Source: a virus
Lineage: Duplodnaviria > Heunggongvirae > Uroviricota > Caudoviricetes
DNA length: 41,636 nt
Strand: one strand, 5' to 3'
IMG/VR virus record: IMGVR_UViG_2908567220_000009
Below the pieces are notes generated by a model. It was not told the origin of the DNA. It saw nothing but the letters and a program-made list of their open reading frames with translations, and made no database searches. Made by a program: the position numbers and the translations under genes. This document shows, piece after piece, positions 4,050 through 41,636 of the stretch; positions within the stretch are counted from its first letter, which is position 1; the number at the start of each line of letters is the position of its first letter.

Positions 4050-4121
4050 AGCGCCTTCTTCCCTTGGGTGATGCTGCCAACTTACTGATTTAGTGTATGA
4101 TGGTGTTTTTGAGGTGCTCCA

Positions 4122-4397
4122 GTGGCTTCTGTTTCTATCAGCTGTCCCTCCTGTTCAGCTACTGACGGGGTGGTGCGTAACGGCAAAAGCACCGCCGGAC
4201 ATCAGCGCTATCTCTGCTCTCACTGCCGTAAAACATGGCAACTGCAGTTCACTTACACCGCTTCTCAACCCGGTACGCACCAGAAAATCATTGATATGGC
4301 CATGAATGGCGTTGGATGCCGGGCAACTGCCCGCATTATGGGCGTTGGCCTCAACACGATTTTACGTCACTTAAAAAACTCAGGCCGCAGCCGGTAA
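4122..4397 (+). CDS. insA: IS1 InsA (transposition inhibitor / N-terminal part of InsAB')
   Basis: 91-aa [25 protein letters not shown]... with GTG start; the A6C frameshift motif TTAAAAAAC lies near 4371-4379. Confidence 0.95.
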
Positions 4398-4819
4398 CCT
4401 CGCGCATACAGCCGGGCAGTGACGTCATCGTCTGCGCGGAAATGGACGAACAGTGGGGCTATGTCGGGGCTAAATCGCGCCAGCGCTGGCTGTTTTACGC
4501 GTATGACAGTCTCCGGAAGACGGTTGTTGCGCACGTATTCGGTGAACGCACTATGGCGACGCTGGGGCGTCTTATGAGCCTGCTGTCACCCTTTGACGTG
4601 GTGATATGGATGACGGATGGCTGGCCGCTGTATGAATCCCGCCTGAAGGGAAAGCTGCACGTAATCAGCAAGCGATATACGCAGCGAATTGAGCGGCATA
4701 ACCTGAATCTGAGGCAGCACCTGGCACGGCTGGGACGGAAGTCGCTGTCGTTCTCAAAATCGGTGGAGCTGCATGACAAAGTCATCGGGCATTATCTGAA
4801 CATAAAACACTATCAATAA
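4316..4819 (+). CDS. insB: IS1 InsB frame (expressed as InsAB' transposase by programmed -1 frameshift)
   Basis: 167-aa ORF in the -1 frame relative to insA, C-terminus ...[15 protein letters not shown]. Confidence 0.9.
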
Positions 4820-4958
4820 GTTGGAGTCATTACCCTAAAGCAGTTCTCATTTCAGGTGTTATTCACTTATTCCTTCTTTGAGTCTCTCCAATTAAGTACG
4901 AAGTCGTTTCTGTTATGCAAACCATTTATTCCGAAAGGCTCAAGTTAAGGAATGTAGA

Positions 4959-9911: not shown

Positions 9912-10562
9912 ATGAATGCACGAAAAGCGGTACTGGCAGACAATCCGGAATTGATCCTGCGTGTGCTACAGCTGAGATTTGACGAGTCACTGTCGTACCC
10001 GCGCATTTCTGCGCAGACCGGTGTCAGCAAAACCGCCATTTTTTCTCTGGTGAGGCGATTTCACCAGGTATTCACTGACTGGCCTCTTTCCGGTGAATAT
10101 TCCTGCGGGCAACTGGCCCGGGCTCTTTTCCCGGGGCGATACCCTTCAGCCCCGACCGTGACTCAGCCTGTGAAAGCAGAGAAACCCCGCCGGAACCGAT
10201 TTTCACCGGAGTTTAAATGGAGACTGGTTCAGCAAACTCTTTTACCCGGTGCCTGTGTCGCACAAATAGCTCGAGAGAATGGAATTAACGATAACCTGCT
10301 CTTTAACTGGCGGCATCTCTGGCGTAACGGTGGCCTGCAACCGCCCGGCGAACATGAAACATCGCTACTTCCCGTGACGTTAACTCCGGAGCCGGATAAT
10401 AAAATCCCGGCACCAGTGCAGATACCTGAACAGATAAATACACTGCCAGACAGTCTGTGCTGCGAGCTGGTTCTGCCGGCCGGAACTCTCAGGCTGAAAG
10501 GTGAACTGACACCGGCGTTATTACAGACACTTATCCGCGAAATGAAAGGGAGCAGCCACTGA
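9912..10562 (+). CDS. IS66-family accessory protein (orfA/TnpA)
   Basis: 216-aa ORF, first of three co-oriented ORFs inside the element; its stop overlaps the orfB start (ATGA). Confidence 0.75.
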   Translation: MNARKAVLADNPELILRVLQLRFDESLSYPRISAQTGVSKTAIFSLVRRFHQVFTDWPLSGEYSCGQLARALFPGRYPSAPTVTQPVKAEKPRRNRFSPEFKWRLVQQTLLPGACVAQIARENGINDNLLFNWRHLWRNGGLQPPGEHETSLLPVTLTPEPDNKIPAPVQIPEQINTLPDSLCCELVLPAGTLRLKGELTPALLQTLIREMKGSSH

Positions 10563-10909
10563 TGATATCTCTCCCTGCCGGTTCGCGTATCTGGCTGGTT
10601 GCCGGTATCACCGATATGCGAAATGGCTTTAACGGCCTGGCCTCAAAAGTTCAGAACGTCCTGAAGGATGACCCGTTCTCCGGGCATCTGTTCATCTTCC
10701 GCGGACGCCGGGGTGACCAGATAAAAGTGCTGTGGGCTGACAGTGACGGACTGTGCCTCTTCACCAAACGCCTGGAGCGGGGCCGCTTCGTCTGGCCGGT
10801 CACCCGCGATGGAAAGGTTCACCTTACTCCGGCTCAGTTGTCCATGCTTCTCGAAGGCATCGACTGGAAGCACCCGAAACGAACGGAACGCGCTGGCATC
10901 CGCATATAA
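10562..10909 (+). CDS. IS66-family Orf2 (TnpB-like)
   Basis: 115 aa MISLPAGSRIWLVAGITDMRNGFNGLASKV...; size and the conserved N-terminal motif fit IS66 Orf2. Confidence 0.85.
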   Translation: MISLPAGSRIWLVAGITDMRNGFNGLASKVQNVLKDDPFSGHLFIFRGRRGDQIKVLWADSDGLCLFTKRLERGRFVWPVTRDGKVHLTPAQLSMLLEGIDWKHPKRTERAGIRI

Positions 10910-10928
10910 CCCGTTGTAAAGTGAGGAT

Positions 10929-12500
10929 ATGGACACCTCACTTGCTCATGAGAATGCCCGCCTGCGGGCACTGTTGCAGACGCAACAGGACACCATCCGC
11001 CAGATGGCGAAATACAACCGCCTGCTCTCACAGCGGGTGGCGGCTTATGCTTCCGAAATCAACCGGCTGAAGGCGCTGGTTGCGAAACTGCAGCGCATGC
11101 AGTTCGGTAAAAGCTCAGAAAAACTTCGCGCTAAAACCGAACGGCAGATACAGGAAGCCCAGGAGCGAATCAGCGCACTTCAGGAAGAAATGGCGGAAAC
11201 GCTGGATGAGCAATATGACCCGGTACTGCCATCCGCCCTGCGCCAGTCTTCAGCCCGTAAGCCGTTACCGGCCTCACTTCCCCGTGAAACCCGGGTCATC
11301 CGGCCGGAAGAGGAATGCTGCCCGGCCTGTGGTGGTGACCTCAGTCCTCTGGGGTGTGATGTGTCAGAGCAACTGGAGCTTATCAGCAGCGCTTTTAAGG
11401 TTATCGAAACACAACGTCCGAAACTGGCCTGTTGCCGGTGCGACCATATCGTGCAGGCACCAGTACCTTCAAAACCCATTGCACGCAGTTATGCCGGAGC
11501 GGGGCTTCTGGCTCATATCGTCACCGGGAAGTATGCAGACCATCTGCCGTTATACCGCCAGTCAGAAATATACCTTCGTCAGGGCGTGGAACTGAGCCGC
11601 GCCACGCTGGGGCGCTGGACCGGTGCCGTTGCTGAACTGCTGGAGCCGCTGTATGACGTGCTGCGCCAGTATGTGCTGATGCCCGGTAAAGTCCATGCGG
11701 ATGATATCCCCGTTCCGGTCCAGGAGCCGGGCAGTGGTAAAACAAGAACTGCCCGGCTGTGGGTCTATGTCCGTGATGACCGTAACGCCGGTTCACAGAT
11801 GCCCCCGGCGGTCTGGTTCGCGTACAGCCCGGACCGGAAAGGTATCCATCCACAGAATCACCTGGCCGGTTACAGCGGTGTGCTTCAGGCAGATGCTTAC
11901 GGTGGTTACCGGGCGTTATACGAATCCGGCAGAATAACGGAAGCCGCGTGTATGGCCCATGCCCGGAGAAAAATCCACGATGTGCATGCAAGAGTGCCAA
12001 CCGACATCACCACGGAAGCCCTGCAGCGTATCGGTGAACTGTATGTCATCGAGGCAGAAGTCCGGGGATGTTCAGCAGAACAGCGTCTGGCAGCAAGAAA
12101 AGCCAGAGCGGCTCCACTGATGCAGTCACTGTATGACTGGATACAGGAACAGATGAAAACACTGTCGCGTCACTCGGATACGGCAAAAGCGTTCGCATAC
12201 CTGCTGAAACAGTGGGAGGCCCTGAACGTGTACTGCAGTAATGGCTGGGTGGAAATCGACAACAACATCGCAGAGAACGCCTTACGGGGAGTGGCCGTAG
12301 GCCGGAAAAACTGGCTCTTCGCGGGTTCCGACAGCGGTGGCGAACATGCGGCGGTGTTGTACTCGCTGATCGGCACATGCCGTCTGAACAATGTGGAACC
12401 AGAAAAATGGCTGCGTTACGTCATTGAGCATATCCAGGATTGGCCGGCAAACCGGGTACGCGATCTGTTGCCCTGGAAAGTTGATCTGACCTCTCAGTAA
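10929..12500 (+). CDS. IS66-family transposase (orfC/TnpC)
   Basis: 523 aa with an N-terminal leucine-zipper-like region, CxxC...CxxC zinc-finger motifs (CPACGG...CCRCDH) and a DDE-type core. Confidence 0.9.
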
Positions 12501-14554: not shown

Positions 14555-16653
14555 ATGGGTTTTTCATCAGCCCGAAATTTGGGAAGGGACATATCGGCAG
14601 GATTTTCCCCACCACGTCGCATGCCGATTTCGGAGGCTGTTAAAAAATTCATGCGTGTTCCCAAGGGGGCTGGTAACTCGGTGCCAGGGATCCTGAACTG
14701 ACACCCTACATCATTGAGCCCATGAACTGCCTGGCATCGCGTGAATACGATGCGGTGATTTTTGTTGGTCCTGCGCGAACAGGGAAGACCATTGGTCTGA
14801 TCGATGGATGGATTGTCTATACCATCGTTTGCGATCCTTCGGACATGCTCGTTGTGCAGATGACCGAAGATAAGGCCCGCGAGCATTCTAAAAAGCGCCT
14901 CGACAGAACGTTCAGAAGCAGTGCGGCGGTAAAGAAAAGAATGAGTCCACGTCGTAACGACAATAATGTCCATGATAAGACGTTCAGGGATGGCTCGTTC
15001 CTTAAAATTGGTTGGCCCTCGGTCAACATTATGTCGTCGTCGGATTACCGGTTTGTCGCCTTAACCGATTACGACCGTTTTCCGGAGAATATCGACAGCG
15101 AGGGTGATGGTTTCTCCCTGGCCTCAAAACGTACCACCACATTTATGTCCGCCGGGATGACTCTGGTGGAGAGCTCGCCGGGACGTGACATCTGCGACAG
15201 CAAATGGCGACGTAAGTCGCCTCATGAAGCGCCACCGACGACTGGTATTCTTTCCCTTTACAATCGTGGTGACCGCCGCCGCTGGTACTGGTCATGTCCG
15301 CACTGCGGTGAATATTTTCAGCCAGCCATGGATGCCATGACCGGCTACCGTAATGAACCGGATCCCTTTAAAGCCAGTGAGGCGGCGTATCTACTTTGCC
15401 CGCACTGCAGCGGCATTATCACTGCGGAGAAAAAGCGTGAGCTCAATAGTGCAGGAGTCTGGTTGCGTGAAGGTCAGGTCATTGATCGTAACGGCAACGT
15501 TTCCGGTGAACCGCGCCGCTCCCGTATCGCCAGTTTCTGGATGGAAGGGCCAGCTGCTGCGTATCAGACCTGGGCGCAACTGGTTTACAAATTACTGACT
15601 GCAGAACAGGAGTATGAAGCGACAGGAAGCGAAGAAACACTCAGGGCGGTTATCAACACCGACTGGGGATTGCCTTATCTTCCTCGTGCCAGCATGGAGC
15701 AACGAAAAAGTGAACTGCTTGAGCAGCGGGCAGAGCCAGTTCCTTCCCGCAGTGTGCCGGATGGCATTAATTTCCTTGTGGCGACAGTGGATGTGCAGGC
15801 GGGACGTCATCGCCGTTTTGTGGTTCAGGTAACGGGCTATGGCAGTCGTGGCGAACGCTGGATTATTGATCGTTACAACATCACGCAGTCATTGCGCAGT
15901 GACTGCGACGGGGAGAGCCAGCGAATTGATCCGGCCAGCTATCCGGAAGACTGGGATGTCCTGCTGACGGATGTTTTTCATAAAAGCTGGCCGCTGGCCT
16001 CCGATCCTTCTCAACAAATGCGACTGATGGCAATGGCGGTGGACTCCGGCGGTGAAGACGGGGTCACTGATAATGCCTATAAATTCTGGCGTCGTTGCCG
16101 TCGTGATGGCCTTGGTAAACGTATTTACCTGTTTAAGGGTGACAGCATCCGGCGCGCAAAACTGATCAGCCGTACATTCCCTGATAACACCGGACGAACG
16201 GGCCGCCGGGCGCAGGCCGCAGGTGATGTGCCGCTCTGGCTTCTTCAGACGGATGCCCTGAAAGACCGGGTGAATAACGCGTTATGGCGTGACTCGCCAG
16301 GTCCAGGCTATGTGCATTTCCCTGACTGGCTGGGGAGCTGGTTTTACGACGAACTGACGTATGAAGAGCGAAGCAGTGACGGGAAATGGAGTAAGCCGGG
16401 TCGCGGTGCCAACGAAGCTTTTGACCTGATGGTGTATGCCGAGGCTCTGGTCATTCTGCATGGATACGAAAAGATCCGCTGGCCGGATGCACCGGAGTGG
16501 GCGAGCCGGGAAACCTGGCTGGAGTGTGTCCAGGACAGTACCGAACCGTCATCCTCACCGGAACCGGTATCCACGCCTGTTAAAAAACAAAAACGGAAGA
16601 AAACAGTAACTGACGATGTTAACCCCTGGCTGACTTCCGGAGGATGGTTATGA
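14555..16653 (+). pseudogene. terminase large subunit (lambda gpA family) interrupted by a frameshift near 14681-14700
   Basis: ATG at 14555 with a strong RBS (AGGAGG) encodes 48 aa ending at a TGA (14699-14701). The remaining 643-aa frame (annotated from 14722, open from 14677) is displaced by one nucleotide. Homology to lambda gpA is continuous across the break (VPKGAGNS / RDPELTPYIIEPMNCLAS versus lambda LPKESAYQEGRWETLPFQRAIMNAMGS). Confidence 0.8.
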
Positions 16654-28996: not shown

Positions 28997-32398
<3,402 letters not shown>

Positions 32399-32464: not shown

Positions 32465-33064
32465 ATGCGTAAAGTTTGTGCAGCCATTTTGTCCGCAGCC
32501 ATCTGTCTGGCCGTATCCGGTGCGCCTGCATGGGCGTCTGAGCAGCAGGCCACACTGAGCGCAGGGTATCTTCATGCCCGTACGAACGCTCCCGGCAGCG
32601 ATAATCTGAACGGGATTAACGTGAAATACCGTTATGAGTTTACGGACACGCTGGGGCTGATTACGTCATTCAGTTATGCCAACGCTGAAGATGAGCAAAA
32701 AACGCATTACAGCGATACCCGCTGGCATGAGGATTCCGTGCGTAACCGCTGGTTCAGCGTGATGGCGGGGCCGTCTGTGCGCGTGAATGAATGGTTCAGC
32801 GCGTATGCGATGGCGGGTGTGGCTTACAGCCGTGTGTCGACTTTCTCCGGGGATTATCTCCGCGTAACTGACAACAAGGGGAAAACGCACGATGTGCTGA
32901 CCGGAAGTGATGACGGTCGCCACAGCAACATGTCTCTGGCGTGGGGGGCTGGCGTGCAGTTTAACCCGACCGAATCCGTGGCCATTGATATTGCTTATGA
33001 AGGCTCCGGCAGTGGCGACTGGCGCACTGACGGTTTCATCGTGGGTGTTGGTTATAAGTTCTGA
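32465..33064 (+). CDS. lom: Lom/Ail-family outer-membrane beta-barrel protein (moron)
   Basis: 199 aa with a signal peptide (MRKVCAAILSAAICLAVSGAPAWA) and the C-terminus ...IAYEGSGSGDWRTDGFIVGVGYKF shared with lambda Lom. Confidence 0.9.
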   Translation: MRKVCAAILSAAICLAVSGAPAWASEQQATLSAGYLHARTNAPGSDNLNGINVKYRYEFTDTLGLITSFSYANAEDEQKTHYSDTRWHEDSVRNRWFSVMAGPSVRVNEWFSAYAMAGVAYSRVSTFSGDYLRVTDNKGKTHDVLTGSDDGRHSNMSLAWGAGVQFNPTESVAIDIAYEGSGSGDWRTDGFIVGVGYKF

Positions 33065-33090
33065 TTAGCCAGGTAACACAGTGTTATGAC

Positions 33091-33117
33091 AGCCCGCCGG
33101 TTCAGGCGGGCTTTTTT
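33091..33117 (+). terminator. rho-independent terminator after lom
   Basis: AGCCCGCC-GGTTCA-GGCGGGCT followed by TTTTTT. Confidence 0.7.
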
Positions 33118-33128
33118 GTGGGGTGAAT

Positions 33129-36100
33129 ATGGCAGTAAAGATTTCAGGTGTACTGAAAGACGGTGCAGGTAAACCGGTACAGAACTGCACAATCCAGCTG
33201 AAAGCAAAACGTAACAGCACCACGGTGGTGGCGAACACGGTGGCCTCAGAAAATCCGGATGAAGCCGGGCGTTACAGCATGGACGTTGAGTACGGTCAGT
33301 ACAGCGTTATTCTGTTGGTGGAAGGCTTCCCGCCATCGCATGCCGGGACCATCACCGTGTATGAAGACTCACAACCGGGTACGCTGAATGATTTTCTCGG
33401 TGCCATGACGGAGGATGATGTCCGTCCGGAGGCACTGCGCCGCTTTGAACTGATGGTGGAAGAGGTGGCGCATAACGCGTCCGCAGTGGCACAGAACACG
33501 GCTGCCGCAAAGAAGTCAGCCAGCGATGCCGGCACATCTGCCCGTGAGGCGGCAACCCATGCAACCGATGCCGCAGGCTCAGCACGTGCAGCCAGCACGT
33601 CAGCCGGACAGGCCGCTTCGTCGGCTCAGTCAGCATCTTCCAGCGCAGGAACGGCATCAACAAAGGCCACTGAAGCATTAAAAAGTGCTGCCGCCGCAGA
33701 GTCTTCAAAAAGCGCGGCAGCCACCAGTGCCGGTGCGGCGAAAACGTCAGAAACGAATGCTGCAGCGTCACAAAAATCTGCAGCCACTTCTGCATCCACC
33801 GCGACCACGAAAGCGTCAGAAGCTGCCACCTCATCCCGGGATGCGGCGGCCTCAAAAGAGGCAGCGAAATCATCAGAAACGAACGCATCATCAAGTGCCA
33901 GTAGTGCAGCTTCCTCGGCAACGGCGGCAGGAAATTCCGCGAAGGCCGCAAAAACGTCTGAGACGAATGCGGATAACAGCGCACAGGCGGCAGCAGACTC
34001 ACAAACTGCATCGGCAAACTCCGCGACAGCAGCCAAAAAATCAGAAACCAACGCGAAAAATAGCGAGGCAGCAGCAAAGAGCAGCGAAACCAACGCTAAA
34101 GCCAGCGAAACTAATGCTAAATCCAGTGAAACAAACGCGGCGAAATCTGCAGCGGACGCACTTAATTATCGCAACCAGGCGCAAGGGATTGTAGGCACCA
34201 GCATCGGCCTCGGGGCATCACCGCGTGATTGTCCTGATATTTCCGGCAACCCATCAGGGTATATCGGATTTATGCGCATTATGAGTAATGCAAAAGGCTT
34301 TCCATCGATTGCATCCGGTGAAAGCAGTCTTACGGGGTTTATTAGTCAGGTAGATGGAACTCCAGCGTATACAGGTGTATTTCAGGGATGGGCTACGCGC
34401 TCGCTTTATACTTATCGCTGGAATCCGACAACAGGCCCGCAATGGACACGTCACGCTCGCAAAAATGAAGTGGACCGTCTTGACCAATGGAATAGCGAAA
34501 CATGGATATATAACCATGATAAATCCATGCGCCTGGGTTTAACCGGATCAACATGGGGGTGTTACAGCGACACACAAAAAAAATGGATACCGCTTGATGT
34601 TTCTCATGGTGGCACTGGCGCAAATAGCCTTGATGACGCCAAAACTAATTTGCAAATCCCTGAGGGTGGATTAACAAAAGCGATGACCCTTAATGCCCCT
34701 GGTGGTGCAGTGGATGGCAAATACTACCCTGTCATAATAGACACATCCGCAATGAATGGGAGCGGTGCCATGTTATGTCCTGTTGAAATAAAAACAGCAG
34801 GAGGTCCGGCATCAAATCCGCTTAATAGTAACTCATTTTTTGGGTTCATTCGATGTGGTGGCTGGAGTGACGTTCGCGATGTGGCTTACGGGTCATTTGT
34901 TTGCTATGAAAAAAATGAACTCGGGATACTTTGCATTAAAGCGTCGCAAAGAGATTATGCGCAGCATGTAGCTTTCTACATCCATAAAAGCGCTTTTCCT
35001 GTCGTTGTGCAAACTGGCTACAAGGCAAAAGTTAAGGTTCCAACAGAAGACTACGTAATTGGTGACAACGGGGTTAGATATAAGTTTGGTGTATCAACGT
35101 CAACGGAGGATAACGACAAGAACTTTGTTAAAAATGTTCTTGACTTCACTGGCGGTGAACATGGCTTCTACAGCAACCTTCCGTTCAGACAAGGGGTGTC
35201 AGAAAGGATTGCATTAACAAATGGCCTGAGTTTTGACAAAAATTTTACCGTCACTATTCCTATATTTGTAAACAATGGTCAGATTAAAGCAACACAATCT
35301 TTCACCGCGTACGGTACGGACGTTTCAAACAGAACATTTGTTTCTCAAAGATTACAATCCGAAGGAGGTCCGGTTGTCGATCAAACTGAACTAAGGGCCG
35401 CTAACGCTTCTGGTGAAATTGTTGTCAGGGACATAAATAATTCAGGGAACAGTAAGTTCTTTAATTTTAACCTTGATGGTACCTTCAGTTCTTATCAGGG
35501 ATTGGTTGTTCACACAGGGCAAAACTGGAGCACTCAACATACAGAGAATGTAAATAAGTTTAAGCCAATAGCAGGGAGCGCAGGTGGTCCTGACGGAACA
35601 ATGGTTGTTGGCGGATTCCATGCTCAATTTAGCGGTAATTACGTCACACAATTCGCCGGTCGCAACTCCAAATTTTGGGTAAGAAGCTTTGAGGCTGGGG
35701 TTGATAAGGGATGGAAACGACTATTAACAGTAGACGATCTTAATTCATCTACCGATCTTGCTGTCAGGTCATTAACCACATCTAACCCGGTAAAATCTGG
35801 CGGAGGGCGAATTGATGTCCTTGGAAGCACGTCAGACTATAGCAAAATGGATTGCTTTGTACGTGGGTTTGATAGCACCGGTAATTCTCTCGCGTGGGCG
35901 TTGGGTTCATCAGTCGGCGTAAGTAAGATGCTGTCGCTAAAAAATTTCTTTAGCGGAGCTGAGATACTGCTAAATGGTAATGACGGCGCGGTTCAACTCA
36001 AAACAGGTGCTGTTAACGGGGCTACAGCGCAGGCGCTCACTATCAACAGGAATGAGGTTAACTCAACCGTTGATTTAACCCTTACAAAGCAATCAGGGAC

Positions 36101-36731
36101 TGGTAATCGTTTTGTTTTACAGAACTCAGGTAATGCAGAACTACCGTTTTCTGTGAGGGTGTGGGGTTCCAGTACTCGACAAAACGTTTTTGAGGTTGGA
36201 ACGTCTGCTGCGTATCTGTTTTATGCGCAAAAAACGTCAGCAGGCCAGTTGTTTGATGTAAATGGCGCTATTAATTGCACAACGCTGAATCAGTCTTCAG
36301 ACCGCGACCTTAAAGACGATATTCTCGTTATCAGCGACGCGACGAAAGCAATCCGTAAAATGAACGGATACACCTACACGCTCAAGGAAAACGGGATGCC
36401 TTATGCTGGCGTTATTGCCCAGGAAGTAATGGAGGCGATACCAGAAGCTGTGGGATCGTTTACTCATTATGGTGAAGAGTTGCAGGGACCAACGGTTGAC
36501 GGCAATGAATTACGTGAAGAAACACGTTATCTGAATGTTGACTACGCCGCCGTGACTGGCTTACTTGTTCAGGTCGCCCGTGAAACAGATGATCGCGTTA
36601 CCGCGCTGGAAGAGGAAAACACAACGCTACGTCAAAATCTGGCAACAGCAGGCACCCGGATCAGCACTCTGGAAAATCAGGTAAGCGAACTGGTTGCACT
36701 TGTCCGGCAGTTAACAGGAAGCGAACATTGA
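33129..36731 (+). CDS. stf: side tail fibre protein (lambda Stf-like N-terminus, divergent distal domain, C-terminal intramolecular chaperone / S74-type domain)
   Basis: About 1200 aa. The N-terminus MAVKISGVLKDGAGKPVQNCTIQLKAKRNSTTV... and the Ala/Ser/Thr-rich KSSETNA-type repeats match lambda Stf. The distal part is AT-rich and unrelated. The C-terminus contains the SDRDLKDDI motif typical of self-cleaving intramolecular chaperone domains. Confidence 0.85.
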   Translation: MAVKISGVLKDGAGKPVQNCTIQLKAKRNSTTVVANTVASENPDEAGRYSMDVEYGQYSVILLVEGFPPSHAGTITVYEDSQPGTLNDFLGAMTEDDVRPEALRRFELMVEEVAHNASAVAQNTAAAKKSASDAGTSAREAATHATDAAGSARAASTSAGQAASSAQSASSSAGTASTKATEALKSAAAAESSKSAAATSAGAAKTSETNAAASQKSAATSASTATTKASEAATSSRDAAASKEAAKSSETNASSSASSAASSATAAGNSAKAAKTSETNADNSAQAAADSQTASANSATAAKKSETNAKNSEAAAKSSETNAKASETNAKSSETNAAKSAADALNYRNQAQGIVGTSIGLGASPRDCPDISGNPSGYIGFMRIMSNAKGFPSIASGESSLTGFISQVDGTPAYTGVFQGWATRSLYTYRWNPTTGPQWTRHARKNEVDRLDQWNSETWIYNHDKSMRLGLTGSTWGCYSDTQKKWIPLDVSHGGTGANSLDDAKTNLQIPEGGLTKAMTLNAPGGAVDGKYYPVIIDTSAMNGSGAMLCPVEIKTAGGPASNPLNSNSFFGFIRCGGWSDVRDVAYGSFVCYEKNELGILCIKASQRDYAQHVAFYIHKSAFPVVVQTGYKAKVKVPTEDYVIGDNGVRYKFGVSTSTEDNDKNFVKNVLDFTGGEHGFYSNLPFRQGVSERIALTNGLSFDKNFTVTIPIFVNNGQIKATQSFTAYGTDVSNRTFVSQRLQSEGGPVVDQTELRAANASGEIVVRDINNSGNSKFFNFNLDGTFSSYQGLVVHTGQNWSTQHTENVNKFKPIAGSAGGPDGTMVVGGFHAQFSGNYVTQFAGRNSKFWVRSFEAGVDKGWKRLLTVDDLNSSTDLAVRSLTTSNPVKSGGGRIDVLGSTSDYSKMDCFVRGFDSTGNSLAWALGSSVGVSKMLSLKNFFSGAEILLNGNDGAVQLKTGAVNGATAQALTINRNEVNSTVDLTLTKQSGTGNRFVLQNSGNAELPFSVRVWGSSTRQNVFEVGTSAAYLFYAQKTSAGQLFDVNGAINCTTLNQSSDRDLKDDILVISDATKAIRKMNGYTYTLKENGMPYAGVIAQEVMEAIPEAVGSFTHYGEELQGPTVDGNELREETRYLNVDYAAVTGLLVQVARETDDRVTALEEENTTLRQNLATAGTRISTLENQVSELVALVRQLTGSEH

Positions 36732-36734
36732 TAT

Positions 36735-36906
36735 CCTTCAAGCCCTGAAGGAGGCTGTTCCCGGTACGTTCAGACTGTTGTTGAGCTGGAGATCGCAACG
36801 GAGGAAGAGAAAGCGTTACTGGCCGCATGGAAAAAGTATCGGGTGTTGCTGAACCGTGTTGATACGTCAACTGCACAGGATATTGAATGGCCAGCACTGC
36901 CGTAGG
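36735..36906 (+). pseudogene. tfa: tail fibre assembly protein (tfa) 3' remnant
   Basis: Frame encodes ...[41 protein letters not shown], matching the conserved C-terminus of lambda-type Tfa. There is no start codon and an in-frame stop lies immediately upstream. Confidence 0.75.
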
Positions 36907-37002
36907 GTAAAACATATAAATTCTATAATTAGATGTATCTTTCCATTTACGGCAAGGAAGGGGGCTTGGAAGACGTAAAGCATCTCACACCGAGATTATT
37001 TT

Positions 37003-37593
37003 TTATATGTCAGGTGTCTGAAGTTTTGCTTTGGCTCTTAAAATGGTTTGCCGCGAGGTTATGAATTCCCGGGCAATGGCACTTATACTTACACCTGACT
37101 TAATTCGTTCGAATACCACCTGTTTCTGTTCTTTATTTAACACAGGTGGTCGACCAAAACGTTTCCCTGCGCCGCGGGCTCTTACTATCCCGGAATGAGT
37201 GCGTTCAAGTAAAAGGTCTCGTTCAAATTCAGCGACTGCTGAAATTACTTGCATCATCATTTTTCCTGTTGGACTGGTCAGGTCAATGCCCCCCAATGCT
37301 AAGCAATGCACTCTGATACCTGTTTCGGTCAGTTGTTCCACTGTTTTCCTGATATCCATTGCATTACAACCAAGGCGATCCAGTTTTGTCACAATCAATT
37401 GATCACCACATTTCAGGCGAGCAAGCAACCGGTTAAAACCAGGACGCTCACTGGTTGCTGCTGAGCCGCTAATGTGTTCTTCGATTATTTGCTGAGGTTT
37501 GATTTTAAAACCTGCACTTTCGATTTCCCGGCGTTGATTTTCGGTGGTCTGATCCAGCGTTGATATCCGACAGTAAGCAAAAATTCGAGACAT
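37003..37593 (-). CDS. pinQ: serine recombinase (Pin-type invertase/resolvase family)
   Basis: 196 aa [29 protein letters not shown]... with the catalytic Ser in the RISTLDQ motif and a C-terminal HTH; located after stf/tfa as pinQ/pinR are in Qin/Rac. Q versus R symbol not resolved. Confidence 0.8.
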
Positions 37594-37909
37594 AGTGAGA
37601 CTCTATACGAAATTGGTGTTCATATCATAATGCATCTCAGAAAATAATTTTGATTATTTTTGTGCATATTTGTATGTACACGTTCGAAAATAAACGAATG
37701 CGTATGCAACCCCGTAATTTTGGTGAGACCCAAAATCGATTTTGTGAAAAATGGCTTTAACTCGGTTTGTTTTTCGAGTTCCGGGCGGACTCAAGGAAGA
37801 AGAATAGTGTTGCGTGTTATTTTAACCAGATTTCAAGTTGTTTGGTCGTGGAAAAGTGGAGCAAAATGTTGTTAAAGTGGAAAAATGATAAAAAAGTAAG
37901 TTTATTATA

Positions 37910-38176
37910 TTACATTTTACCATTTAAATTTTGGTTGTCTTTAAGAACTGATATCGCTGTTTGTAATAATTCTTTGTTATCCAGCCATGATTTTTTCTTT
38001 ATGTTTCCTTCAATGTAATCAAGCAATGTTCTGGTATTGATAGGTCTTCCCTGTTTTGCTACTTCCACTACAGCATCCCCTAGGATAATTCTTACTTCAG
38101 GAAGCTGCGCAGGAAACCACTTTAGGGTGTCTTTTGATTTCATGAAGATATTCCTTAAAATATTATTGATTTTCAT
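37910..38176 (-). CDS. ydfK: YdfK/YnaE-family small prophage protein
   Basis: ORF ending ...MKSKDTLKWFPAQLPEVRIILGDAVVEVAKQGRPINTRTLLDYIEGNIKKK...; terminal gene of Qin/Rac-type prophages. Likely true start at 38143 (MKSKD); the region is AT-rich. Confidence 0.7.
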   Translation of the reverse strand: MKINNILRNIFMKSKDTLKWFPAQLPEVRIILGDAVVEVAKQGRPINTRTLLDYIEGNIKKKSWLDNKELLQTAISVLKDNQNLNGKM

Positions 38177-38687
38177 TGCGATATTGTATGTCTGATTCAG
38201 GATATGTTGACTTATACATCGGTTTTGTCCGGGTTATTGGATATGCCAATCCCTAATTTTATTAGGGCATGACTAAAAATGCTGAATATGATAAGGAGAG
38301 AAGTGATTATCAGTATGCTGTTCATATAGCCTCGAATTAGTAATGTGTTATATATGATATAGTTGACAATTTTTATCTTGGGTGTTCTTAAAGTTCGTAG
38401 ATAAACATTGTCGTTTCAGGTATACAGGAATGCTAACAGGTGGCAGCAAAAATCAGGCGGTTTATGGCGCAAGCTGAAGCGGCAACTGCAAACACTATTT
38501 TATGCAGAGACTCTACACGGATTGGGTTTAAAAGTATACATAGATAACAGTTTTTATCTGAAAAAGAAAAATATCAAGGTGATATAGCCTATATGCCTTT
38601 GATGCGGAGGAATGAATGTGATGGGAGTGATGGGTGATGCTGCCAACTTACTGATTTAGTGTATGATGGTGTTTTTGAGGTGCTCCA

Positions 38688-38963
38688 GTGGCTTCTGTTT
38701 CTATCAGCTGTCCCTCCTGTTCAGCTACTGACGGGGTGGTGCGTAACGGCAAAAGCACCGCCGGACATCAGCGCTATCTCTGCTCTCACTGCCGTAAAAC
38801 ATGGCAACTGCAGTTCACTTACACCGCTTCTCAACCCGGTACGCACCAGAAAATCATTGATATGGCCATGAATGGCGTTGGATGCCGGGCAACTGCCCGC
38901 ATTATGGGCGTTGGCCTCAACACGATTTTACGTCACTTAAAAAACTCAGGCCGCAGTCGGTAA
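38688..38963 (+). CDS. insA: IS1 InsA
   Basis: Identical protein to the copy A InsA. Confidence 0.95.
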
Positions 38964-39385
38964 CCTCGCGCATACAGCCGGGCAGTGACGTCATCGTCTG
39001 CGCGGAAATGGACGAACAGTGGGGCTATGTCGGGGCTAAATCGCGCCAGCGCTGGCTGTTTTACGCGTATGACAGTCTCCGGAAGACGGTTGTTGCGCAC
39101 GTATTCGGTGAACGCACTATGGCGACGCTGGGGCGTCTTATGAGCCTGCTGTCACCCTTTGACGTGGTGATATGGATGACGGATGGCTGGCCGCTGTATG
39201 AATCCCGCCTGAAGGGAAAGCTGCACGTAATCAGCAAGCGATATACGCAGCGAATTGAGCGGCATAACCTGAATCTGAGGCAGCACCTGGCACGGCTGGG
39301 ACGGAAGTCGCTGTCGTTTTCAAAATCGGTGGAGCTGCATGACAAAGTCATCGGGCATTATCTGAACATAAAACACTATCAATAA
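38882..39385 (+). CDS. insB: IS1 InsB frame
   Basis: 167 aa; one substitution relative to copy A (S versus P at residue 26). Confidence 0.9.
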
Positions 39386-39400
39386 GTTGGAGTCATTACC

Positions 39401-41062: not shown

Positions 41063-41244
41063 AGGTGTTTTCTCCTTTCTGATTTACAGTCGAAGCCCAC
41101 GTAACGGGCGCAATATAAATACTCCTGTCGAGTGAAATATTTTTTGTTTTTGATCAAGCTCACATCTTTTTTGATGCATGCATGAGCCATAAGGCGGGCG
41201 AAAGACTCTCACCCCGGATGGGATGAGAGGAAATGAATTACTCG

Positions 41245-41636
41245 GTAATGACTCCAACTTATTGATAGTGTTTTATGTTCAGATAATGCCCGATGACTTT
41301 GTCATGCAGCTCCACCGATTTTGAGAACGACAGCGACTTCCGTCCCAGCCGTGCCAGGTGCTGCCTCAGATTCAGGTTATGCCGCTCAATTCGCTGCGTA
41401 TATCGCTTGCTGATTACGTGCAGCTTTCCCTTCAGGCGGGATTCATACAGCGGCCAGCCATCCGTCATCCATATCACCACGTCAAAGGGTGACAGCAGGC
41501 TCATAAGACGCCCCAGCGTCGCCATAGTGCGTTCACCGAATACGTGCGCAACAACCGTCTTCCGGAGACTGTCATACGCGTAAAACAGCCAGCGCTGGCG
41601 CGATTTAGCCCCGACATAGCCCCACTGTTCGTCCAT
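41245..41636 (-). mobile_element. IS1, copy C (inverted, partial: continues beyond window end)
   Basis: Starts with the reverse complement of the IS1 right end (GGTAATGACTCCAACTTATTGATAGTG) and contains the insB 3' part on the minus strand. Confidence 0.9.
41259..41636 (-). CDS. insB: IS1 InsB frame (partial, runs off window)
   Basis: 125-aa C-terminal part [26 protein letters not shown]...HYLNIKHYQ. Confidence 0.85.

Follow-up and report, generated by a model that had tools for sequence, protein, structure and literature searches.

The locus described here raises the question of how a side tail fibre of the lambda type has acquired a tip foreign to it, and what became of the tail fibre assembly gene, tfa, that follows the fibre gene, stf, in phage lambda. 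The locus occupies positions 33,129-36,906 of a stretch of DNA of 41,636 nucleotides (the window), deposited as IMG/VR virus record IMGVR_UViG_2908567220_000009 and assigned to Caudoviricetes. The gene very probably encodes a mosaic lambdoid side tail fibre, in which a lambda-type anchor is joined to a foreign, self-chaperoning tip, with a leftover of tfa lying behind it. A fibre of this construction had been described in an earlier note on the same DNA, and every element of that feature was found where the note had placed it or only a few bases away. The features are listed in Table 1.

Table 1. Positions of the features of the fibre locus, and of the neighbouring features, in the window.
Feature	Position	Strand	Details
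stf coding sequence	33129..36731	+	1200 aa (amino acids), 126.2 kDa; TGA stop 36729-36731; from the list of open reading frames (ORFs)
N-terminal tail-attachment domain, aa 1-134	33129..33530	+	Pfam phage_tail_N (PF08400), E 3.8e-71
Lambda-like segment, aa 1-284	33129..33980	+	85% aa identity to lambda Stf (orf-401)
Ala/Ser/Thr-rich shaft repeats, aa 285-358, KxSETNA motifs; candidate left crossover zone	33981..34202	+	Motif positions, tandem array
Distal part of the mature fibre, foreign: shaft and receptor-binding region, aa 359-1056	34203..36296	+	G+C content (GC) 0.447; FritzHoffmann/slur09 homology; PHROG 6578
S74 intramolecular chaperone domain, aa 1057-1200	36297..36728	+	15.9 kDa; Pfam PF13884
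Putative catalytic dyad	Ser1057 codon 36297-36299; Lys1062 codon 36312-36314	+	
Predicted coiled coil	aa 1157-1198	+	Coiled-coil profile matches
Spacer, 36 nt	36732..36767	+	Holds GAAGGAGG at 36747-36754; no start codon after the motif
tfa remnant, last 45 codons and TAG (36903-36905)	36768..36905	+	tblastn, Caudo_TAP, ORF list; in frame with stf
Terminator-like hairpin, lom-stf gap	33091..33112	+	Stem of 8 pairs (7 G-C), then T run
pinQ-type serine invertase, intact	37003..37593	-	Resolvase and HTH_7 domains
IS1 copy	4067-4834		Replaces ~10.6 kb of early region (dicB to Q-type antiterminator ydfT) relative to strain 08-00022
IS1 copy	38633-39400		Replaces ~1.7 kb ydfJ remnant relative to K-12 and NCTC9064
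IS1 copy	41244-41636		Cut off by the window end
ISCro1-like IS66-family element	~9912-12500		ORFs of 216, 115 and 523 aa; just upstream of DUF1441 and terminase genes

The stf gene is located directly 3' of J (29000-32398) and lom (32465-33064) in a lambdoid late operon, as expected for Stf, and the order J-lom-stf is common to lambda, mEp460, Ayreon and the window. Its ORF is intact, with candidate starts at 33123 (GTG) and 33129 (ATG, equivalent to the start in lambda); the length of 1200 aa is counted from the ATG. DNA identity with lambda is 87.7% over 33000-33970 and ends at 33970. Over residues 1-94 the protein aligns with the collar domain at the N-terminus of Ur-lambda Stf, for which structures have been solved (9e7m/9mgh; E 3.5e-51), and in the Ur-lambda structure the tail-tip collar is built from twelve copies of the N-terminal domain (PMC12617516). 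By this homology, residues 1-134 would anchor the fibre trimers to the tail tip. The Pfam scores of both phage_tail_N and Peptidase_S74 exceed the respective cut-offs, while a search of NCBIfam gave no model fitting either Stf or the tfa stub.

Following the anchor, the Ala/Ser/Thr-rich repeats would form a shaft. A total of seven K(T/S/K/A)SETNA motifs are located between residues 205 and 337, and a 21-bp tandem array lies at 34082-34138 within the shaft repeats. The same kind of repeat is found in fibres of the T5 type, with identities of 58% for slur09 and 56% for T5 pb1. About 350 codons had been taken as lambda-like in the earlier note; 284 codons are indeed of lambda type, but the further ~75 codons belong to these shaft repeats, which are shared with T5-type fibres. 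The repeats of codons 285-358 are a natural place for the left crossover.

Downstream of the repeats, the gene is homologous to lateral tail fibre genes of virulent phages. The match to FritzHoffmann (Bas20, a Nonagvirus) extends from 34203/34230 to 36611/36618 with 83.7% DNA identity, and the proteins are 79% identical over 864 aa; with slur09 (Tequintavirus), the identity is 75-87% for DNA and 70% over 746 aa for protein. The same region matches PHROG 6578 (tail fibre) with E = 0. The distal shaft, the receptor-binding region and the chaperone are thus all homologous to those of FritzHoffmann and slur09, but both phages differ from the window in having other N-terminal anchors, other last ~25-30 residues and no tfa remnant downstream. 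Residues ~359-1200 can accordingly be regarded as a probable lateral-fibre module of the T5-like/Nonagvirus kind. For T5-type lateral fibres the O-antigen is the primary receptor (PMC8594841; PMC4690869), and in the phage relatives of this module the fibre would serve for the first, reversible binding to a surface glycan, usually the O-antigen; a glycan receptor is predicted for the fibre of the window as well. As to the expectation that the swap of the tip altered the host range, we infer only that such a change could have followed.

The base composition agrees with the origin of the distal module. GC is 0.573 for residues 1-284 and 0.544 for the structural genes of the prophage, and that of the distal module (GC at third codon positions, 0.385) is close to the values of the related fibre genes of FritzHoffmann (0.442) and slur09 (0.415), not to that of the prophage structural genes. 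The sequence had been called markedly AT-rich from about 34200. The fall in GC is real, yet moderate, as 18% of the 2.1-kb windows in this stretch are equally or more AT-rich than the distal module.

The last 37 codons of stf have a different affiliation. They match neither FritzHoffmann nor slur09, but match the fibre C-termini (...ALVRQLTGSEE) of mEp021-like temperate phages with genomes of ~54 kb. This homology stops at the stop codon; in the mEp021-like phages a terminator is located 3' of the fibre gene and no tfa is present, and in the contig examined an integrase-like ORF comes next. Unlike K-12 StfR, the Stf of the window carries no Collar or Phage_fiber domain detectable with Pfam. 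The protein thus qualifies as a Stf through its anchor and the position of its gene, but not through its tip.

The C-terminal end of the fibre was identified as an S74-type intramolecular chaperone domain, as the earlier note had read it. Peptidase_S74 (PF13884) matches residues 1057-1108 with E 3.1e-13 (score 50.2 bits, cut-off 22), and the sequence SDRDLKDDI forms residues 1057-1065 (36297-36323). The domain begins with the S-x4-K spacing of the family (S1057-D-R-D-L-K1062) and, with its predicted terminal coiled-coil helix, sits at the extreme C-terminus (the last 144 aa), so that the family profile, the spacing of the dyad and the location all agree with S74 proteins. Ser1057 and Lys1062 are invariant in 22 homologues with identities down to 55%, and in the alignment of these homologues the S74 domain is the best-conserved part of the protein. 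By direct pairwise alignment, the two residues fall on Ser1264 and Lys1269 of T5 pb1. In T5 pb1, the Thr1263-Ser1264 bond is no longer self-cleaved once Ser1264 is replaced (S1264A), and the proposed activator of the serine is Lys1269; the 133-residue domain that is released forms a trimeric chaperone, in which long beta-hairpins accompany a central coiled coil (PMC4690869).

By analogy with T5 pb1, the last 144 residues would nucleate trimer folding from the C-terminus, Lys1062 would activate Ser1057, and cleavage between Ser1056 and Ser1057 would release a fragment of 15.9 kDa, leaving a mature fibre of a predicted 110.4 kDa. Because folding would be self-contained, a separate Tfa chaperone would be dispensable, and the last 45 tfa codons would persist untranslated.

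The resemblance to T5 pb1 (PDB 4UW7/4UW8) covers the KTSETNA-type shaft repeats and the C-terminal self-cleaving chaperone dyad. Against pb1, both BLASTP and hhalign align only the shaft repeats and the region of the cleavage site, with a probability of 30% only in hhalign, and no sequence similarity to the receptor-binding "bullet" domain of pb1 is detectable. K1F gp17 also ends in an S74 chaperone (3GW6). The likeness to T5 pb1 and K1F that had been pointed out therefore applies to the chaperone (and, for pb1, to the shaft repeats) but not to the receptor-binding core, which is of the slur09/FritzHoffmann type. In searches of PDB sequences, single-sequence and profile, neither T5 pb1 nor the K1F endosialidase was recovered, so the link with T5 was drawn from the direct pairwise alignment; the top PDB match for this region was the chaperone domain of gp37 of Salmonella phage S16 (6f45), with SSDRRIKKDI at the aligned position.

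Several points weigh against this reading of the tip. For Asp1239 and Arg1250, which complete the active site of T5, the pairwise alignment offers no obvious counterparts at corresponding positions. The AlphaFold model has a mean predicted local distance difference test score (pLDDT) of 57.6 and a predicted template modelling score (pTM) of 0.26, values obtained from a shallow alignment and for a single chain of an intertwined trimer, and a Foldseek comparison of this low-confidence monomer with the PDB gave nothing at E <= 0.001, the best match being T4 gp34 (E 0.096). Self-cleavage and independence from Tfa are what we infer by analogy, for the Stf of the window and for that of mEp460 alike. 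Although the ORF is intact, this prophage probably does not express the fibre as part of a particle. With regard to the fold, the order of elements in the model, that is, short helices, a long beta-hairpin (pLDDT ~50) and a terminal helix of 57 residues (pLDDT 70-83), agrees with the description of the T5 chaperone, albeit in a low-confidence monomer.

The stretch that follows stf retains only the end of a tfa gene. Nucleotides 36768-36902 match residues 147-191 of Tfa (of 191-194), with 76% identity to lambda Tfa and 82% to K-12 TfaQ by tblastn, and Pfam Caudo_TAP covers only profile positions 86-130 of 131 (E 2.5e-20). The codons retained specify a portion of the conserved helical domain at the Tfa C-terminus, believed to drive trimerisation (PMC9608196), whereas the variable fibre-binding N-terminal domain is gone. 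The earliest in-frame ATG, GTG or TTG in the remnant is a GTG at 36843, from which a product of only 20 aa would be made. The stub is thus neither a complete two-domain protein nor a translatable gene, and tblastn across the window detected no second tfa, in agreement with the earlier statement that an intact copy is absent. The stub had been described as start-less and as encoding the conserved Tfa C-terminus, both of which hold, but its homology begins at 36768 and not at 36735; the spacer of 36732-36767 in between is unrelated to tfa and also to the DNA 3' of the fibre gene in the phages grouped as class B, in FritzHoffmann and in slur09. Within the spacer, GAAGGAGG is a strong Shine-Dalgarno-like motif, and the codon at 36762-36764 reads CGG (Arg) in the window but TGG (Trp) in each of the 30 other copies. 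Neither a terminator-like site nor a structured RNA was detected in 36725-37010 (fold z-score -0.11).

The stub shares the frame of stf and lies 12 codons past its TGA, an arrangement that could suggest expression of the remnant, either by readthrough of the stf UGA, adding the supposedly trimerising Tfa helices to the chaperone, or as a separate mini-protein. The stub frame is open in 30 of 31 copies, and two PHROG families of 78-88 aa (phrog_3792 and phrog_2341) largely correspond to the Tfa C-terminus. The open frame, however, has no ATG, GTG or TTG before its codon 38 and none in the spacer after GAAGGAGG. Since all copies with the junction of the window (class A) share one junction, their in-frame relation counts once, as a single observation with a chance expectation of one in three, and in 2G7b-like phages (class C) the remnant is 356 nt away, in another frame and behind a terminator-like hairpin and a small gene. 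Disruption of the stub occurs once per ~4.2 kb, which by this rough count is not below the rate of stf in the same contigs, and the ratio of nonsynonymous to synonymous substitution rates (dN/dS) of the stub against tfaQ, ~0.42, exceeds that between intact tfa genes, 0.12, although the numbers are small. Expression of the remnant is thus highly improbable, and an untranslated leftover is the preferred interpretation.

Comparison with other loci supports the replacement of a Tfa-dependent tip by an S74 tip. Lambda Stf and K-12 StfR have the same N-terminal domain, shaft and genomic position as the Stf of the window, but have no S74 domain and keep a full-length tfa or tfaR; StfR shows Collar and Phage_fiber tip domains, and that of lambda Stf is described as T4 gp37-like (PMC7291167). 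In contrast, each S74-type lambdoid fibre examined, namely those of mEp460, Ayreon, PhiR70_1, strain LSN03 and 2G7b, is accompanied by tfa remnants only.

The opposite order of events may also be considered, in which this lineage had the S74 fibre from the start and acquired the tfa fragment later, together with the right flank. Native Qin DNA runs from 36769 rightwards, so the 3' part of the stub came with the right arm here; virulent and mEp021-like phages have S74 fibres without any tfa; and the FritzHoffmann fibre starts with a distant phage_tail_N-like domain (35% identity). Against these points, a tfa that begins in the middle of a domain (profile position 86) must descend from a full tfa that was cut, at whatever locus, two independent truncations (at Tfa residues 147 and 156) adjoin S74 genes, and intact tfa is always associated with non-S74 tips in the loci examined. 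The reversed order is consequently an unlikely one, and displacement of tfa by the incoming S74 tip is retained as the preferred direction.

The closest described counterpart is the Stf of phage mEp460 (AFM76057.1; JQ182728 / NC_019716), which has the same gene in the same position behind J and lom, and the same stub (97.7% nucleotide identity, 1172 of 1200 aa identical, no indels, dN/dS 0.21). The deposited mEp460 record is that of a complete phage genome, with Escherichia coli named as host; it is likewise without tfa, but differs in the last 6-9 codons of the stub and in everything downstream (DinI and integrase instead of pinQ), and in being a complete genome where the window holds a decayed prophage. 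The papers examined on the mEp phages gave no functional data for such fibres. The whole allele was found in 85 complete E. coli genomes, where RefSeq names the fibre [quoted passage not shown] and the following tfa as incomplete ("tail fiber assembly protein, incomplete, missing N-terminus" on the same stretch as the stub); this pair in RefSeq/PGAP annotation shows no substantive difference from the locus of the window, although a number of the copies, such as that of NCTC9064, contain a frameshift. Public annotation therefore already covers the gene with its domains as well as the truncated tfa, and the feature is widespread and not specific to this window.

The junction itself is more frequent than this allele. 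A 347-bp probe made of the chaperone end and the stub was covered to at least 80% in 803 of 5426 complete E. coli genomes (~15%), and the exact 26-mer of the junction was present in 29 IMG/VR contigs, in which intact fibre ORFs upstream are 1096-1369 aa long. Among the IMG/VR contigs the stub ends in at least seven ways (for instance a lambda-like PAVPVME and a Qin-like QDIEWPALP), each with its own downstream sequence. In Ayreon and PhiR70_1, the same two flanks as in the window enclose different receptor-binding cores. Within IMG/VR, the spacer occurs only together with the junction, except in one contig with a deletion joining lom to the spacer. In that contig (2908572912_000001, L123; 10240-10310), codon ~55 of lom is fused to the post-stf spacer at a shared ATATC, and the fusion is a clean deletion of the whole stf by microhomology. 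Two scans with one genome per species gave 0 matches for the junction 26-mer and, for a protein pattern, only a distant match in Chryseobacterium.

Because the junction is widespread, the cores and stub endings vary and the spacer is bound to the junction, the junction between the chaperone end and the tfa remnant was formed once and was then carried by exchange in the conserved flanks. The joining event would have been illegitimate, and the later spread among lambdoid prophages would have proceeded by homologous exchange, on the left through the stf 5' region and the shaft repeats and on the right through the tfa 3' end. The locus had been presented as a clean record of a module swap within the sequence; the logic of replacement is backed by the comparison of loci, but the record is that of an old, shared junction and not of an event specific to the window.

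A second, independent junction between an S74 gene and a tfa remnant is found in 2G7b-like lambdoid phages (Nesevirus). These phages resemble the window in having an S74 fibre followed by a tfa remnant, but the fibre is split into a phage_tail_N gene and a separate S74 gene of 345 aa, and the stop of the latter is followed by a terminator-like hairpin, a gene for a membrane protein of 99 aa and then the remnant, which begins at Tfa residue 156, lies 356 nt past the stop and is in a frame other than that of the S74 gene. As this junction is independent, there have been at least two occasions on which an S74 tip took the place of the 5' part of tfa. In phage 2G7b (L121; 3653-5165 and 6026-6171) and in locus L008 (7644-7823), two tfa fragments flank a gene for an S-adenosylmethionine-dependent methyltransferase on the opposite strand, and the region 3' of the fibre gene in these two loci resembles a dumping ground for cargo.

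These findings suggest, tentatively, that the 135-bp remnant of the tfa 3' end may provide a portable receptor-binding cassette with its right-hand homology arm, S74 modules having entered stf-tfa loci at least twice. The variety of stub endings fits this proposal. If it is true, the first junction would have reached ~15% of E. coli genomes by repeated crossovers inside the remnant, from which the seven or more allele-specific endings and the varied downstream genes would result, and modular exchange would continue after dependence on Tfa was lost, with the conserved tail of tfa retained as a handle for recombination.

The locus exemplifies the modular exchange for which phage fibre genes are well known and leaves the current understanding unchanged; modestly new are the junction of single origin with many endings and the second, independent junction. 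It offers a tidy natural case of phage retargeting, in which the anchor is kept and a tip with a built-in folding domain is swapped in, with no need for a matched helper. The same design has been made deliberately in a lambda-K1F side tail fibre (STF) chimera, in which the N-terminal part of lambda STF was fused at S528 to a heterologous fibre or spike, and the same logic is now applied to engineered lambda-based delivery particles with heterologous tips (PMC11338833). The natural junction in the window lies at residues ~284-358, and such junctions point to fusion points already tried by evolution. Recurrent tfa remnants may mark the exchange of fibre cassettes among E. coli prophages.

The element that carries the fibre gene is a decayed prophage at the Qin site. 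Nucleotides 36769-38632 are 98.4% identical to the right arm of K-12 Qin (the 3' end of tfaQ, pinQ, ydfK and ynfT), and for this reason the element is considered a relative of Qin, more complete than it and located at the ydfJ site. The three IS1 copies of the window are 99.7-100% identical to one another, and an ISCro1-like insertion is also found in related O26-type prophages. The gene for the large terminase (14555-16653) is split, with reference residues 1-44 and 46-699 matched at 100% in different frames; the implied frameshift near 14686-14689 reflects either genuine inactivation or an error in sequencing.

Since the early region together with Q is lost, the terminase is frameshifted and IS elements are present, the fibre is unlikely to be built into particles here, and the gene may be a silent relic of a dead prophage, at most a stored receptor-binding allele for incoming lambdoid phages. 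We regard this state as rather likely, and it is compatible with the mosaic, self-chaperoning fibre being what the gene encodes. In line with it, the ~10.6 kb replaced by IS1 include the Q-type antiterminator ydfT, ISCro1 lies upstream of the packaging genes, and a terminator-like hairpin precedes stf. This strong hairpin is conserved, the corresponding site in mEp460 and Ayreon being annotated as a terminator, and expression of stf presumably depends on Q-mediated readthrough of it, Q being missing here. In the closest genomic copy, that of NCTC9064, stf is frameshifted and the prophage gutted. On the other hand, the 3.6-kb ORF of the window is intact and colinear with the mEp460 gene, with the dN/dS of 0.21 given above, the terminase frameshift could be a sequencing error, and another promoter or the Q of a helper phage could drive expression.

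Among the neighbouring genes, the pinQ-type invertase appears to be orphaned, as in K-12 Qin and Rac, neither a gix- or pix-like crossover core nor an inverted partner segment being recognisable in the window. An invertible segment tying the stub to pinQ inversion was considered and rejected, since neither a AAACCNNGGTTT-like core near stf nor any meaningful inverted repeats were detected. Against lambda J, the final 250 residues of J (31646-32395) show only 63% identity, the first ~110 of them being nearly identical and the C-terminal ~140 divergent; because of this divergence, the receptor specificity of the central fibre may differ from LamB.

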